Positions 13,770 to 58,860 of a DNA stretch of 64,000 nucleotides are shown piece by piece. Each line of letters starts with the position of its first letter. Position 1 is the stretch's first letter. The translations under genes were made by a program, and so were the position numbers. Source of the DNA: an uncultured Mollicutes bacterium (GTDB taxonomy: Bacteria; Bacillota_I; Bacilli_A; RFN20; CAG-826). The notes under the pieces are model-generated. The model ran no database searches and was not told the origin of the DNA. It was given only the letters and a program-made list of their open reading frames with translations. The DNA lies in the NCBI GenBank assembly GCA_900540365.1, contig UQFN01000003.1:21139-85138 (forward strand). The letters run 5' to 3'.

Positions 13770-13806
13770 TACCCCCCATAAAAAGTTTTTTAAAGCGTCT
13801 TGTATA
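13770..13806 (+). promoter_or_regulatory. Bipartite G/C-rich promoter-like motif upstream of comEA (copy A)
   Basis: TACCCCCCA-N14-AAGCGTCTTGTATA. The same two blocks with the same spacing recur at 58824..58860 (-). Confidence 0.5.
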
Positions 13807-13820
13807 TGAGGAGGTATTAT

Positions 13821-14363
13821 ATGTCTTTAACATTAAAAATTATTTTAGGTGTCGTTATTGTAACAATAATCGGCTTGCTGGCATTTAAACTTATTGATGG
13901 GAGTAGTTTACAAGCAAATGATGTCACTAATCCAGCTGATGTTGTTAGAAATTCAATTGGAATTAGTGGTTATGTCGTTAGTCCTGGTAATTACTTATTA
14001 GATGAAAACTCGACCATGCAAGATTTAATTGATAAAGCAGGAGGAGTAACTGATAAAGCAGATACAAGAGCTTTTTTGCCTGGAGCAATTGTAGAAAAAA
14101 GTGTTCAATATTATATTCCACCAAGATATAATCCAACTGATATTTGTGCAACGGAAGAACTTCAAAAAGTAAACATTAATTCCTACATTGATCCTGAAGA
14201 ATTAAGTTTTATTGAAGGAATTGGCAACACAATTTCACAATCAATAATTGATTATCGTAATGAAAATGGATTATATCAAACATTAGAAGATATCATGAAA
14301 GTTAATGGAATTGGCAATGCAACTTATACAAAATTAAGAAATTATATTATTTTAGTTGATTAA
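13821..14363 (+). CDS. comEA: Competence protein ComEA (DNA receptor)
   Basis: Start moved to the ATG after RBS GAGGAGG (the track start is a TTG). N-terminal TM segment, C-terminal helix-hairpin-helix pair (GIGNTISQSIIDYR...VNGIGNATYTKL). Confidence 0.85.
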   Translation: MSLTLKIILGVVIVTIIGLLAFKLIDGSSLQANDVTNPADVVRNSIGISGYVVSPGNYLLDENSTMQDLIDKAGGVTDKADTRAFLPGAIVEKSVQYYIPPRYNPTDICATEELQKVNINSYIDPEELSFIEGIGNTISQSIIDYRNENGLYQTLEDIMKVNGIGNATYTKLRNYIILVD

Positions 14364-14364
14364 T

Positions 14365-16362
14365 ATGGCAATATTTCTTTGCTTATTATCACTAATTCTT
14401 GGAATTTTACTTTTAAATGTAGAATTTATTTTTCTTAATATAATTATCTTTTCTTTAATTGTTTATATTAATTTAAAGTATTTTAAGAAAAACCTAAAAA
14501 TTATATTATTTCAAATCTTCTTTTTAATAATAGGTTTAGTATTTATAAATATTAACATTGTTGATATAAATACAAGTAACATATGGGGTATTGTTGTTAA
14601 AAAAAGTGACAATTACTTAATTATAAGAACATTTTTTACTAAATATTATGTTACAAATAATGAAGAATTAAATTTATTTGATATTGTTAATGTTTCTGGC
14701 AGTAGAAGTGAATTAAATTTTATTCATTATGAATCATCTTTTGATTTTAATAAATTTCTAAAGCTAAGTGGAACCTCTTATTATTTAAAGATTAACAAAA
14801 TTAATACCTTATTGAAATTTCCATTAGATTTTGAAGGCTATAAAGAAGATATATTAGTAAGAATAAATGATGTTCAACTAAAAAATTATGTGAATTTAAT
14901 ATTATTTAATGAAGAAATAGATGATAAAGCTACGAATTTATTAATAAATATATTATCAATAAGTGGAGTTTACTTGAATTTTGCATTATATGGCCTAAGT
15001 AAGTCATTTGCTTATATATGTAATAAAAAAGAAAGTAGGCTCTTATCTTTGATTTTATTATCACCTTATATATTATTTAATATTTATAGATTTAGTGTGT
15101 TTAAAACAGCAGTTTTGTTTATTTTTAATTTAATCTTTTTAAATAAGCATTACGATAATTTAAAGAAGATTTCACTTTTATATTTGTGCTTTTTGCTTCT
15201 TGATATAAGACTAATTTATTCTGCATCCTTTTATATTTCTTTAATATTTTCTTTTATTTTTATGTTTTCAAAATTATATATTTCTAGTGCACATAAATTT
15301 GTTAAACTATTAAAAACAAAAATTATTTTCTTTATCTTTTTTATACCATTTTATCTAGAATTTAATGGATATATTAATTTTATAAATTTAATATTTAACT
15401 TGAGTTTTGCAGGTTTTTTTAAAATTTTCTTTACTTTTTCATTATTAAGTTTTTATGGAATTCATCTAAAATTTTTAGAAAAACCAATGGTAGATATTTT
15501 AAATTTTTTTAATTTAATTGAAATAAAAGAATTAAATATAAATATTCCTAAATTTGATATTAACATATATATTATTTATTTTTTGTTGATGATTTTATTA
15601 ATGTATTTTTTAGAAATAAACTATAAAAGGAATACCAAAATAATCTTGATATTGACAACTGTATTTTCTTTATTTTATATAATTCCAATTAAAGAATATT
15701 TTACTTTTGAAGTATCGTTTTTAAATGTTGGTCAAGGTGACTCAACCTATATTCATTATAAAGATAAAAACTTTTTAATAGATACTGGAGGTTTATTAAA
15801 TTATGATTTAGCTGAGAATTCCCTAATACCATTTTTAAGAAGAAAACGTGTATACAAATTGGACGCTGTATTTATAACTCATTATGATTATGATCATTAT
15901 GGAAGTTTAGAAAGCTTAAATAAAAAGTTTAACATTCTAACTATATATGATTACAACAGTTCGTTTCCAGTTTATAGTAGTAATTTAAAATTTATAAATT
16001 TGAATACTTTAAAAAATGCAACTGATGAGAATGACAAAAGTTTAGTAATTTATCTAGATGTTAATAATATCTCTTTTTTGTTTATGGGAGATGCAACTAC
16101 TAAGGTTGAAAGAAATATTTTAAATAACTATCAAAATCTTAAATGTGATTATATAAAACTTGGTCATCATGGTAGTGACACTTCCTCATCATATGAATTT
16201 TTAAAAGAAGTTTCTCCAAAAGAAGCTATTGTATCATGTGGAATAAATAATAAATTTAATCATCCTAGCAAAAAAACATTGCAAAATTTAACGAAATTAA
16301 ATATTAAATGTCGTCGTACAGATCTTGAAGGGACAATTACTTATAAATTTAGAGCATTTTAG
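14365..16362 (+). CDS. comEC: Competence protein ComEC/Rec2 (DNA uptake channel with MBL domain)
   Basis: Polytopic membrane protein with a C-terminal metallo-beta-lactamase region (VSFLNVGQGDSTYI...HYDYDHYG...GHHGS). ATG 14365 preferred over TTG 14356. Confidence 0.85.
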   Translation: MAIFLCLLSLILGILLLNVEFIFLNIIIFSLIVYINLKYFKKNLKIILFQIFFLIIGLVFININIVDINTSNIWGIVVKKSDNYLIIRTFFTKYYVTNNEELNLFDIVNVSGSRSELNFIHYESSFDFNKFLKLSGTSYYLKINKINTLLKFPLDFEGYKEDILVRINDVQLKNYVNLILFNEEIDDKATNLLINILSISGVYLNFALYGLSKSFAYICNKKESRLLSLILLSPYILFNIYRFSVFKTAVLFIFNLIFLNKHYDNLKKISLLYLCFLLLDIRLIYSASFYISLIFSFIFMFSKLYISSAHKFVKLLKTKIIFFIFFIPFYLEFNGYINFINLIFNLSFAGFFKIFFTFSLLSFYGIHLKFLEKPMVDILNFFNLIEIKELNINIPKFDINIYIIYFLLMILLMYFLEINYKRNTKIILILTTVFSLFYIIPIKEYFTFEVSFLNVGQGDSTYIHYKDKNFLIDTGGLLNYDLAENSLIPFLRRKRVYKLDAVFITHYDYDHYGSLESLNKKFNILTIYDYNSSFPVYSSNLKFINLNTLKNATDENDKSLVIYLDVNNISFLFMGDATTKVERNILNNYQNLKCDYIKLGHHGSDTSSSYEFLKEVSPKEAIVSCGINNKFNHPSKKTLQNLTKLNIKCRRTDLEGTITYKFRAF

Positions 16363-16376
16363 TATATAATAATTGC

Positions 16377-17360
16377 ATGACTTATTTATTTTTTAGTAAT
16401 GATTCTGAAAGATTAAATATTTATTTAGATTCTTTTATTAATAAATTTTTTAAAGATGAAGAGAAAAATGTTGTCTCATTTAACGCTAATGAAACAAGTG
16501 TTAATGAAATAATTAACGAATGTTATCAATTATCTTTAGCTTATAACAAAAAAATAGTTGTTTTAAAAGATACAATTTTTTTAAAAAAAGAAACTAAATA
16601 TGCAAAAATTAAGAAAAATAAAATATTAAAAAATAATAATTATGAACTTTTAAAAAAATATATTATTCAAGATAATTCAGAAGATGTAATTTTAATTTTA
16701 ACTTATGATGGCGATGATATTGATAAAGAAAATATCATCTATCAAGCTATTGATTCTAAAAATAAGAAATTTTTGACTAATTTAACTGAAGCAGATTGGC
16801 CACTTTATGTTAAAAAATATTTTGAGAAAAGAGAATTTAGCATTGATGAAGAAGCAATAAATGAAATTGTTTTAAGATCAAACGGAAGTTTAAGACATTT
16901 TATAAATGAAGCTGAAAAATTAGAACTTTATTGTAATAAAAAAATCACATTATGTGATGTAAAAGAAATTTTTATCAAGCCTAATGAAGATGACATTTTT
17001 GCCTTAACTAAAGCGTTATTAAAAAATGATAAAGATAAAGCTTTGCAAATTTATCGAGATTTAAGGACTACACAAAATATTGAACCAATTACTCTTATTA
17101 GTATTATGAGCAATTCTTTAATATTAATTAATCAAATTAAATTTCTAATGAAACAAGGGAATAATGTTGATGAAATTGCAAATTTACTTAAAGTTAAAAA
17201 AGGAAAAATTTATTATACCTTACAAGATAGTAAAAAAATAAATGAAGATAGTATAAAAAAAGCTTTAAATGATTTAGCATTACTTGATAAGAAGATTAAG
17301 CATAATGAAGTAGATAGATTTTATGCTTTTGAAATATTTTTACTTAATTTCAATGCATAA
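16377..17360 (+). CDS. holA: DNA polymerase III delta subunit
   Basis: Size and the conserved comEC-holA|rpsT synteny. Sequence itself is weakly diagnostic. Confidence 0.65.
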   Translation: MTYLFFSNDSERLNIYLDSFINKFFKDEEKNVVSFNANETSVNEIINECYQLSLAYNKKIVVLKDTIFLKKETKYAKIKKNKILKNNNYELLKKYIIQDNSEDVILILTYDGDDIDKENIIYQAIDSKNKKFLTNLTEADWPLYVKKYFEKREFSIDEEAINEIVLRSNGSLRHFINEAEKLELYCNKKITLCDVKEIFIKPNEDDIFALTKALLKNDKDKALQIYRDLRTTQNIEPITLISIMSNSLILINQIKFLMKQGNNVDEIANLLKVKKGKIYYTLQDSKKINEDSIKKALNDLALLDKKIKHNEVDRFYAFEIFLLNFNA

Positions 17361-34720: not shown

Positions 34721-34750
34721 AAATAACGATGAAAAATCGTTATTTTTTTT
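34721..34750 (+). terminator. Intrinsic terminator after rpsU
   Basis: AATAACGAT-GAAAA-ATCGTTATT followed by T8. Confidence 0.85.
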
Positions 34751-34770
34751 GCTTAAACTTCCTATTTGCA

Positions 34771-34783
34771 CGCGACTTGTATA
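34771..34783 (+). promoter_or_regulatory. Partial copy (downstream half) of the comEA-type motif
   Basis: CGCGACTTGTATA-TAGGAGGTATTTTATG compared with AGCGTCTTGTATA-TGAGGAGGTATTATATG at comEA. No C6 block upstream. Confidence 0.4.
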
Positions 34784-34796
34784 TAGGAGGTATTTT

Positions 34797-35993
34797 ATGA
34801 GCTATTTTATAAAACAACTAGGTGATAAAGATTGTGGTTTTACTTGTGTAAAAATGCTTTTAAGTATTTATTACCATAATAAGGACTATTTATATTATCC
34901 GCTTCCAAATATTGAATCACGAAGTTCTTTAAGGGAATTAATGCATTTTGCTAAAAAAGAGGAAATGATTTTAGCCGCTTCAAGAGTAGTTGAAAAAGAA
35001 GAGATTTTAAAATTTAAATCTAAAAAATCATTTTTAGCACCGATTAATAAAGAAAATAATTTACATATGGTATTAATTCGTAAAGTTTTTAAAAGAAAAT
35101 TATTAATTTATGACCCATCGATTGGAATTTATTTTTTAAGTAAAAAAGAATTTTTGAAAATATGGAATGGCGAAATTCTTGAAGTAAGTAAAATTGGGAT
35201 TAGTAATTTTAAAACAAAAAAGATTAAAATTATTCCTAAATACAAATTAATTACAACCTTAATATTTCAAATTTTTAGCTTTATGTGCTTAGTTTTAGCA
35301 ATGTTATTTGTTGATAAAAACTTTAATTTTTTAATTCCTTTGTTTTTATTTTTAGGATATATTCTTTTTGAAATTTTATATCAAAAAACAATTATTAATT
35401 CTTTAAAGTTTTTCGATAATGAGATTTTAGCTAATGATTATGTTTATAAACGAATTAATTTTCAAAAATATTTTGAACCGATGAATCGTTTTAAATATTC
35501 GATAATATCTTATCCAATTCAAATAATTTCTTGTTTATTAATATTAAGTTTCGGAATATTTGTGTTAGCTATTAATAATTTAGGAAATTTAATAATATTA
35601 GGAATTACATTTGTTTTACAAATTGCCTTTTTTTTATTTGAAAAATTTAAGTTTAGAAGAAAACTTAATTATTTAGAAGTTCTAGAAAAACGTTTAACTA
35701 ATTATTCAAATGAAAATGCCGATGATTTTAAGATAAATATGACTAAACTAAATGAAGAAACATATAAATGTGTTAGTTATTATAACTTTAAGAAGTATCT
35801 ATTAATTTTTGTTACTATTATTTTATGTTTAATTTATCAAGGGTTCGTTGGTGAAATAAGCTTAAATTTTATGTTATTTCACTTTTTTATATATATTTAT
35901 TTACAAGAAAATTTCGACAAAATTCTTAATGTGAATAAAATTATTAACGATATAAAGTATTATAAATGTCTTTATTTATATTATTTTCATTAA
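34797..35993 (+). CDS. Peptidase C39 domain plus six-TM domain protein lacking an ABC ATPase domain
   Basis: Start moved to MSYFIKQLGDKDCGFTCVKML (Q-x5-C). His in NLHMVLI and Asp in IYDPSIG complete the C39 triad. About six TM segments follow. ybeY comes next, so there is no NBD. Confidence 0.65.
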   Translation: MSYFIKQLGDKDCGFTCVKMLLSIYYHNKDYLYYPLPNIESRSSLRELMHFAKKEEMILAASRVVEKEEILKFKSKKSFLAPINKENNLHMVLIRKVFKRKLLIYDPSIGIYFLSKKEFLKIWNGEILEVSKIGISNFKTKKIKIIPKYKLITTLIFQIFSFMCLVLAMLFVDKNFNFLIPLFLFLGYILFEILYQKTIINSLKFFDNEILANDYVYKRINFQKYFEPMNRFKYSIISYPIQIISCLLILSFGIFVLAINNLGNLIILGITFVLQIAFFLFEKFKFRRKLNYLEVLEKRLTNYSNENADDFKINMTKLNEETYKCVSYYNFKKYLLIFVTIILCLIYQGFVGEISLNFMLFHFFIYIYLQENFDKILNVNKIINDIKYYKCLYLYYFH

Positions 35994-58823: not shown

Positions 58824-58860
58824 TATACAAGTCGCTTCCAAAATGAATTGTTGGGGGGTA
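58824..58860 (-). promoter_or_regulatory. Bipartite G/C-rich promoter-like motif (copy B)
   Basis: Minus strand TACCCCCCA-N14-AAGCGACTTGTATA, with the same blocks and spacing as 13770..13806. Confidence 0.5.

Follow-up and report, generated by a model that had tools for sequence, protein, structure and literature searches.

SigH-like sigma factors activate the late com genes in Staphylococcus aureus and Lactobacillus sakei (PMC3364868). They are encoded between cysS and nusG, the classical sigH locus of Bacillota, where they are extremely divergent (<30% identity within a genus), and the sigma-H family is structurally close to the ECF sigma factors (PMC3364868). In Listeria, sigma-H promoters follow the pattern RMAGGRWWW-N11-12-RRMGAAW, with a -10 element GGCGAAT, and lie 19 and 22 nt before comG and comEA (PMC4754846). 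The corresponding streptococcal element, the ComX box, is TACGAATA (PMC11288034).

Here we describe a G/C-rich bipartite motif in a 1.29 Mb genome (25-29% G+C) of the Candidatus Onthovivens lineage. It was noticed in a 64,000-nt stretch of this genome (C3:21139-85138), which we call the window and to which all coordinates without a contig name refer. We consider it likely that the motif is the promoter of a competence regulon, covering DNA uptake and recombination, that is read by a divergent sigma factor of the SigH/ComX family.

Results

Copies of the motif in the window

The full motif, TACCCCCCA-N14-AAGCGNCTTGTATA, occurs twice in the window, where none is expected by chance. Both copies read TACCCCCCA-N14-AAGCG[T/A]CTTGTATA (two matches versus 0.00 expected in 100 shuffles) and lie exactly where the first-pass annotation of this DNA had reported them, at 13770-13806 on the plus strand and at 58824-58860 on the minus strand. 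That annotation had also placed the first copy 15 nt upstream of the comEA start codon, and the motif does end 15 nt before the ATG at 13821. The third locus that it had described, with the downstream half of the motif only, is equally real: behind the half-site GCGACTTGTATA at 34772-34783 come AGGAGG and an ATG at 34797. The shorter pattern GCGNCTTGTATA has three matches in the window versus 0.39 expected. The features are as follows.

13770..13806, plus strand: full promoter-like motif before comEA, TACCCCCCA-N14-AAGCGTCTTGTATA; in the top-scoring class among the 12 sites of the genome
13772..13777, plus strand: C-run CCCCCC, proposed -35 element (CCCCCA-N17-CGTCTT geometry), with the spacing to CGWC constant in 9/9 C-run sites
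13795..13807, plus strand: GCGTCTTGTATAT, the proposed -10 hexamer GCGTCT/CGTCTT with the conserved GTATAT, from the alignment of sites
13808..13814, plus strand: comEA Shine-Dalgarno sequence GAGGAGG, complementary to the C-run block with one mismatch
13821..14363, plus strand: comEA, 180 aa, with SLBB and HHH_3 domains (domain scan)
14356..16362, plus strand: comEC, 668 aa, directly after comEA, called by position and size only
16377..17360, plus strand: holA, 327 aa, an ORF named by its position after comEC only
34749..34754, plus strand: TTGCTT in the place of the C-run, 17 nt before GCGACT; the orthologous promoters in G023 and G017 have a C-run
34772..34784, plus strand: GCGACTTGTATAT, -10 block before the C39-peptidase gene, after an intrinsic terminator-like hairpin at ~34722-34749
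34797..35993, plus strand: polytopic membrane protein with a C39-peptidase domain, 398 aa, encoded at the head of an operon with ybeY-cdd-era-recO-like genes
58824..58860, minus strand: second full copy, TACCCCCCA-N14-AAGCGACTTGTATA, with the genome's highest position weight matrix score
58253..58732, minus strand: orphan ORF, 159 aa, with a leader of ~100 nt and no family match

The holA ORF is likely the last gene of the comEA operon. The only C6 and G6 runs in the window are those inside the two full copies, as had been noted before; with 1.15 such runs expected, two runs alone are not unusual. No sigma-70-type promoter was predicted between comEA and its upstream gene, which for comEA bears out the earlier remark that a convincing sigma-A promoter is lacking. 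An Rfam scan of the window at gathering thresholds returned no RNA family.

The orphan 159-aa ORF had been labeled PemK/MazF-like. This label is unsupported, as Pfam and NCBIfam gave a match neither to PemK/MazF nor to any other family. Orthologues of 167-176 aa are present in two relatives, G023 and G017, each behind a box and a leader of ~100-150 nt.

Genome-wide distribution of the box

We compiled an inventory of sites from an exact search for GCGNCTTGTATA, relaxed scans and a position weight matrix applied to the whole genome. The exact pattern occurs five times. Relaxed scans and the matrix brought the total to 12 sites in 1.29 Mb, all 12 of them intergenic, gene-proximal and oriented toward the next gene, and no further site in the genome scored above the matrix threshold. 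The aligned consensus is taCCCCC(C)AACAa-N11-r(G)CGWCTTGTATat, and the spacing CCCCCA-N17-CGWCTT is invariant in all nine sites with a C-run. The other three carry TTGNNN in its stead, and their orthologues in sister species keep the C-run. The sites lie before the following genes.

comEA-comEC-holA
comFA-comFC
dprA-topA
recA-rny
rpsF-ssb-rpsR
A pilus-like operon encoding a T2SSE-family ATPase, two polytopic membrane proteins and two 60-aa pilin-like proteins
The C39-peptidase membrane protein, followed by ybeY-cdd-era-recO
A 60-aa leader-bearing membrane peptide
A pair of fused ABC/permease proteins whose best match is the bacteriocin-export subfamily
A Cys-containing lipoprotein and two membrane proteins, one with an RDD domain
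The orphan 159-aa ORF
No ORF; this site has a short hairpin behind it

As the downstream genes include the core natural-transformation set, these data confirm the enrichment before other competence genes that the first-pass annotation had suggested looking for: the motif precedes comFA-comFC, dprA, recA, ssb and the pilus operon. The proposal of a small competence-linked regulon was supported with respect to competence; with 12 promoters, the regulon is larger than had been thought. The possibility it had named as a refutation, that the two full copies belong to a larger repeated or mobile element, did not hold, since only ~37 bp are common to the copies and their flanks are unique.

The distance from the box to the gene is short. 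The ribosome-binding site (RBS) mostly lies 1-3 nt after GTATAT and the start codon 22-26 nt after CGWC. At comFA there is no RBS and the ATG is 8 nt after CGAC; at the pilus operon, likewise without an RBS, the ATG is 10 nt after CGTC. Several sites start 2-20 nt past the upstream gene's terminator, which means that they open transcription units and that only read-through could transcribe them from upstream.

Several of the genes and sites merit description in their own right. The pilus-like operon (C6:14088-18744, plus strand) is not of the ComG type; besides the T2SSE ATPase (351 aa) and the two polytopic membrane proteins, it encodes two 60-aa proteins in tandem, both beginning with MGELKGQLL, and in three species its first gene has no RBS. 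The 60-aa peptide (C3:103270 region, minus strand) has a double-glycine-type leader, L-x-x-x-E-L-D-x-I-x-V-G followed by E or D, that is kept in four species. Its regulon-mates include the C39-peptidase protein (34797-35993) and the bacteriocin-exporter-like ABC pair (C14:4896, minus strand). Judging from these sequences, the peptide, the peptidase and the ABC pair may form a competence-linked exported peptide or fratricide system. The radC gene lies directly behind the 60-aa peptide gene in the relatives G023 and G012 and is not there in this genome or in G017.

Within the comFA box (C1:168749-168780, plus strand), GCGACT and AGTCGC form a hairpin that has the ATG in its loop and T6 behind it; an RBS is lacking. 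Box copies with a short hairpin and no ORF occur at C9:59240-59330 (plus strand) and at one site in G017, and both might, judging by sequence, produce small RNAs induced in competence. Downstream of the C9 copy is an ordinary TTACTT-N17-TGATATAAT promoter that serves a putative acetyltransferase gene and dxs. For the putative acetyltransferase, Pfam found no family and GNAT is a guess from the sequence.

Conservation in relatives

For comparison we used 40 relatives, with codes such as G003 or G023. By RecA, the nearest named relatives are metagenome-assembled genomes that carry the labels Candidatus Onthovivens, Mollicutes or Bacilli bacterium. Sampled in this way, the genus is deep (RecA identities 67-86%), and 39 of the 40 relatives have no match to the exact pattern. 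A reading of this absence as non-conservation was ruled out by a relaxed pattern and by the orthologous upstream regions. The relaxed pattern, CCCCC-N20-22-CTTGW, has nine matches in G023, eight in G017 and five in G012, versus none for the reversed pattern that served as control. These three sister species have their own variants of the box, ACGACTTGTATAAT, CCTACTTGTATAGT and CTACTTGTATA, before the same genes, which matches the expectation of the first-pass annotation that related species would retain the element. Taken together, the three species have boxes before ssb, recA, the 60-aa peptide gene (followed by radC in two of them), the pilus operon, the lipoprotein genes, the orphan ORF, the C39-ybeY operon, comEA-comEC, the ABC pair and dprA-topA; one G017 site has no ORF behind it. 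Other members of the genus have no C-run, yet their recA and comEA genes have in common a species-specific box in the corresponding position. The variants, with examples from this last group, are as follows.

G023: ..TTACGACTTGTATAAT
G017: CCCCCTTTTT..CCTACTTGTATAGTGA
G012: ..ATACTACTTGTATA
G003, no C-run: TTCCATACGACAT
G007, no C-run: CGTCTTGTAT
G010, no C-run: TTACATTCTTGAATAGTGAA
G011/G015, no C-run: GAATTCCCCCCCTATTAATAGT

The occurrence of species-specific boxes at the same place indicates that the box keeps its position and function and that its sequence evolves fast.

A candidate sigma factor at the sigH locus

A search of the genome with Pfam Sigma70_r2 identified three sigma genes, the primary one and two of the ECF type. 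By the same criterion G003 and G020 have the primary sigma only. A later, lenient scan with the broader TIGR02937 model gave weak, full-length sigma-like ORFs in G003, G016 and G020, and all of these are located directly after rlmB, an rRNA methyltransferase gene. L11 motifs failed as a route to the sigH locus because L11 is atypical here, and the locus was reached via rlmB.

In this genome, the sigma-like ORF encodes 196 aa and is found outside the window at C4:15431-16021. The order at this locus is cysS, rlmB, the 196-aa ORF, a gap, nusG and rplK; the gap corresponds to rpmG and secE in a relative, whose locus reads cysS-SpoU methylase-X-L33-SecE-NusG-L11. The 196-aa protein matches TIGR02937 over its whole length (E = 2.6e-5), although at 23.9 bits it scores below the curated cut-off of 42.9, and it has no significant match in Pfam. 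A profile built from seven orthologues and run against all PDB sequences had as its best match 3mzy, 'RNA polymerase sigma-H factor', across regions 2 to 4 (E = 3.4e-7). The AlphaFold2 model of the protein is poor (mean pLDDT 59), and a Foldseek search with it gave no match at E <= 0.001; sigma factors ranked first. The first-pass annotation had advised a search for a ComX/SigH-like sigma gene elsewhere in the genome, and a candidate thus exists at the sigH locus.

The 63-nt region upstream of the sigma-like gene has no recognisable RBS, a feature reminiscent of sigH in S. aureus, which is translationally cryptic (PMC3486894). Other matches to sigma region 4 were discarded as candidates: they were a LuxR-type response regulator, YlxM and two genes in foreign DNA of higher GC content. 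A scan of genome contigs with a sigma alignment gave no match. One of the two ECF genes, C15:7531-8052 (minus strand), forms a pair with a membrane-protein gene and is conserved in part of the genus. This pair and its orthologues have a conserved promoter of their own, CCAATAAAAT-N12-CGTATTAAT, and the start codon, ~10 nt after CGTA, suggests that the mRNA would be leaderless or nearly so.

Complementarity between the box and the ribosome-binding site

The upstream block, or an element in the spacer, is often complementary to the RBS. A G-run (GGGG or GGGGG) follows the box where GGAGG would be expected in four of the nine C-run sites, versus ~4% of genes, and such G-runs occur even where no ORF follows. 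The C-run and the G-run form pairs with covarying flanks: TTACCCCCT/AGGGGGTAA, TAACCCCC/GGGGGTTA and ATCCCCC/GGGGGAT. Before comEA, a perfect complement of the RBS region (7-9 nt) is present 15-40 nt upstream in 6 of 13 species, versus 1.1% of 751 control genes, and the pairing sequences differ between species. In the comEA upstream regions and at the G017 sites, this 7-9 nt anti-SD/SD complementarity encloses the box, covaries between species and has a T-run after its 3' arm. Such an enclosing pair may act as a fold-back or terminator lock against read-through. As many sites are without pairing, it appears to be an add-on and not the core of the element.

Proposed promoter model and alternatives

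The motif, its fixed geometry, its exclusive placement, its species-specific variants and the sigma gene with its synteny can be read directly from the genomes. On sequence evidence we infer a reader protein, transcription starts and co-induction of the genes. The C-run CCCCCA would serve as the -35 element and (G)CGWCTT, 17 bases downstream of it, as the -10 element. Transcription would start ~7 nt past the -10 element, inside or just after the conserved GTATAT, and the mRNA 5' end would consequently lie at the RBS or 1-3 nt before it; for comEA this would put the start at ~13807-13809. The comFA mRNA would begin at the ATG itself, making it a candidate leaderless transcript; the comFA box doubles as the terminator-like end of the upstream gene. 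The reader is likely the 196-aa sigma-like protein of C4:15431-16021, encoded between rlmB and rpmG-secE-nusG. When this sigma factor is made, the 12 promoters would fire together.

Some observations are not demanded by a simple promoter model, namely the GTATAT past the proposed -10 element and the complementarity between the upstream block and the RBS. The published consensus sequences (AGGA at -35 with GAAT at -10, or TACGAATA) are not matched. The C-run has no likeness to the AGGA core of known sigma-H promoters, and the -10 element is only partly alike (GCGACT versus GCGAAT; TACGAC versus TACGAA). This mismatch is to be expected if the sigma factor has diverged, but it is still no match.

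Three other explanations were weighed. ECF promoters, such as those of Bacillus subtilis SigW, SigX and SigM, carry AAC at -35 and CGT or CGAC at -10, and many of the C-run sites, which read CCCCCAAC-N15-CGWC, resemble them. The genome has two real ECF sigmas, C6:22141-22650 and C15:7531-8052, the latter with a membrane anti-sigma-like partner and with an own promoter in its family that begins CCAAT or CCAAC, so that either could be thought to read the box. However, the C6 sigma has no orthologue in G012 or G023, though both have the box; the C15 type is absent in G003, G016, G020, G007, G009 and G013, where the box is still present before recA and comEA. Neither ECF operon is preceded by the box, and the C15-type promoter differs from it in the -10 block and in spacing. 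The ECF reading was rejected on this phylogenetic distribution and on the ECF's different own promoter, and we regard it as highly improbable. The first-pass annotation had proposed an alternative sigma of the ECF or the ComX/SigH type; of the two, the latter is favored, as the distribution of the box follows neither true ECF sigma. That annotation had also raised an operator as an alternative. In such a scheme the housekeeping sigma would use the TATAAT-like part as its -10 element, and the C-run and CGWCTTG would be the operator of a competence activator or repressor. A perfect TATAAT does lie inside the box in G023 and G012, and the cognate sigma of the promoter model is a candidate known from sequence. 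In this genome, however, the hexamers (TATATG, TATACA, TAAGTG, TAATTA and others) mostly lack the near-invariant final T and have no -35 element at 17 nt. A start 7 nt past them would fall inside or behind the RBS, and at comFA within the coding sequence. The two blocks form no dyad and are spaced as the -35 and -10 elements of a sigma-70-family holoenzyme. An operator of this kind is unlikely.

The box could also be an RNA element, a 5'-UTR hairpin in which the C-run or anti-SD pairs with the RBS and the conserved loop GCGWCUUGUAUA is the target of a protein or small RNA whose binding opens the hairpin. The frequency of perfect complements in the comEA leaders described above would fit this idea, as would C-run/G-run stems with covarying flanks at 9 of 28 sites (6 of 7 in G017) and folding z-scores of ~-4.5 at the ssb and ABC sites. 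Against it, pairing is missing at dprA, the pilus operon, the C9 site and all sites of G012; comFA and the pilus operon have no RBS to hide; and a C-run 2-3 nt past an upstream terminator leaves no room for a promoter from which it could be transcribed. The distance of the anti-SD from the box varies in other species, which fits an add-on and not a core element, and Rfam recorded no family match. We consider such an element quite improbable. The preferred reading, a promoter read by a SigH/ComX-family sigma, agrees with what distinguishes such promoters: boxes directly upstream of the late competence operons (comE, comF, pilus, dprA, ssb and recA), paired -35 and -10 blocks at fixed spacing, and a SigH/ComX-family gene at the cysS-rlmB-sigH-rpmG-secE-nusG locus, albeit one whose scores are below curated cut-offs.

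A possible translational lock

If the box is a sigma-dependent promoter, the pairing around it might have a separate use. It could be speculated that the competence promoters carry a translational lock: read-through transcripts would fold back and not be translated, while those started by the sigma factor, without the 5' arm, would be. The upstream arm would be the -35 C-run itself in this clade and a CCTCC-type block in the spacer in the sister species, and read-through transcripts might also terminate at the U-run that follows. From the pairing patterns, we hold this to be possible but rather doubtful. The transposase genes of IS10 and IS50 provide a precedent, in that read-through transcripts are inhibited by fold-back and only transcripts from the native promoter are translated. 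As there, an upstream sequence here would pair with the translation initiation region; what would differ is that the pairing serves a host regulon and that, in some species, the -35 element is at the same time the anti-SD. If true, a -35 element that doubles as an anti-SD and covaries across a genus would be a new route to strict dependence on one sigma factor.

Discussion

Candidatus Onthovivens and its relatives are common, uncultured gut Bacilli with small genomes whose gene regulation is unstudied. In the literature searched, no paper listed as naming Candidatus Onthovivens is a study of competence or sigma factors, and none of those that name the genus does so in its title or abstract. 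The box provides a complete, testable list of genes that would be co-expressed for DNA uptake, among them a pilus operon of a non-ComG type and genes for a peptide, a peptidase and an ABC exporter, which as a set may have an effect on neighboring cells. It also points to a hidden sigma factor whose induction would be required for these bacteria to become transformable. Each of four sister species has a different consensus sequence, suggesting that a SigH/ComX-type sigma and its promoter co-evolve quickly, and as a consequence curated models miss both the factor and its sites.

A comparison with Mycoplasma genitalium is instructive. Its Sigma-20 (MG428) is a cryptic, barely recognisable sigma that turns on recA and other recombination genes. 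By description, our candidate would be similar, a cryptic sigma in a small, AT-rich relative among the wall-less or wall-poor Bacillota with recA in its regulon; the MG428 regulon differs in its promoter consensus and is not known to include DNA-uptake genes. The conserved blocks are also distinct from the AAAA-N5-TTTT AT-box dyads of the ComK type in Bacillus.

The streptococcal ComX/SigX cin-box, or com-box, is another close system (PMC11288034). It too is one short box per late competence operon (comE, comF, dprA, ssb, recA/cinA) with a TACGA/GCGA core, comparable to TTACGACTTGTATAAT and TTACGAC in G023, and bacteriocin-like export genes are part of the regulon. Unlike the cin-box, which has no conserved -35 partner, the box described here has a strong -35 block. 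In pneumococci, moreover, comX is not at the sigH locus.

Also among the closest systems are the SigH promoters of non-sporulating Bacilli, namely those of Listeria monocytogenes comG, comE and coiA, of Staphylococcus aureus comG/comE and of Lactobacillus sakei (PMC4754846, PMC3486894, PMC3364868). Common to these and to the present genome are a sigma gene at the cysS-...-nusG locus, sigma sequences that diverge sharply between species, and a bipartite promoter ~20 nt before late competence operons. The -10 elements are similar (GGCGAAT in Listeria, GCGACT/GCGTCT here), and the ~21 nt from the core of the C-run to CGWC are compatible with the AGG-to-CGAA distance of Listeria. Unlike in those systems, the -35 element is a C-run, CCCCCA, and not AAGGAWWT, GTATAT follows the -10 element, the regulon adds recA, rpsF-ssb and a pilus operon not of the ComG type, and the divergence of the sigma is such that curated models fail to recognise it. 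Given the likeness at -10, the spacing, the short distance to the gene and a C-run that is unlike the known -35 elements, we place the motif among those that work like a SigH/ComX promoter, and it is very probably a member of this kind with a consensus of its own. It is a known type of control with a new sequence in an unstudied lineage.
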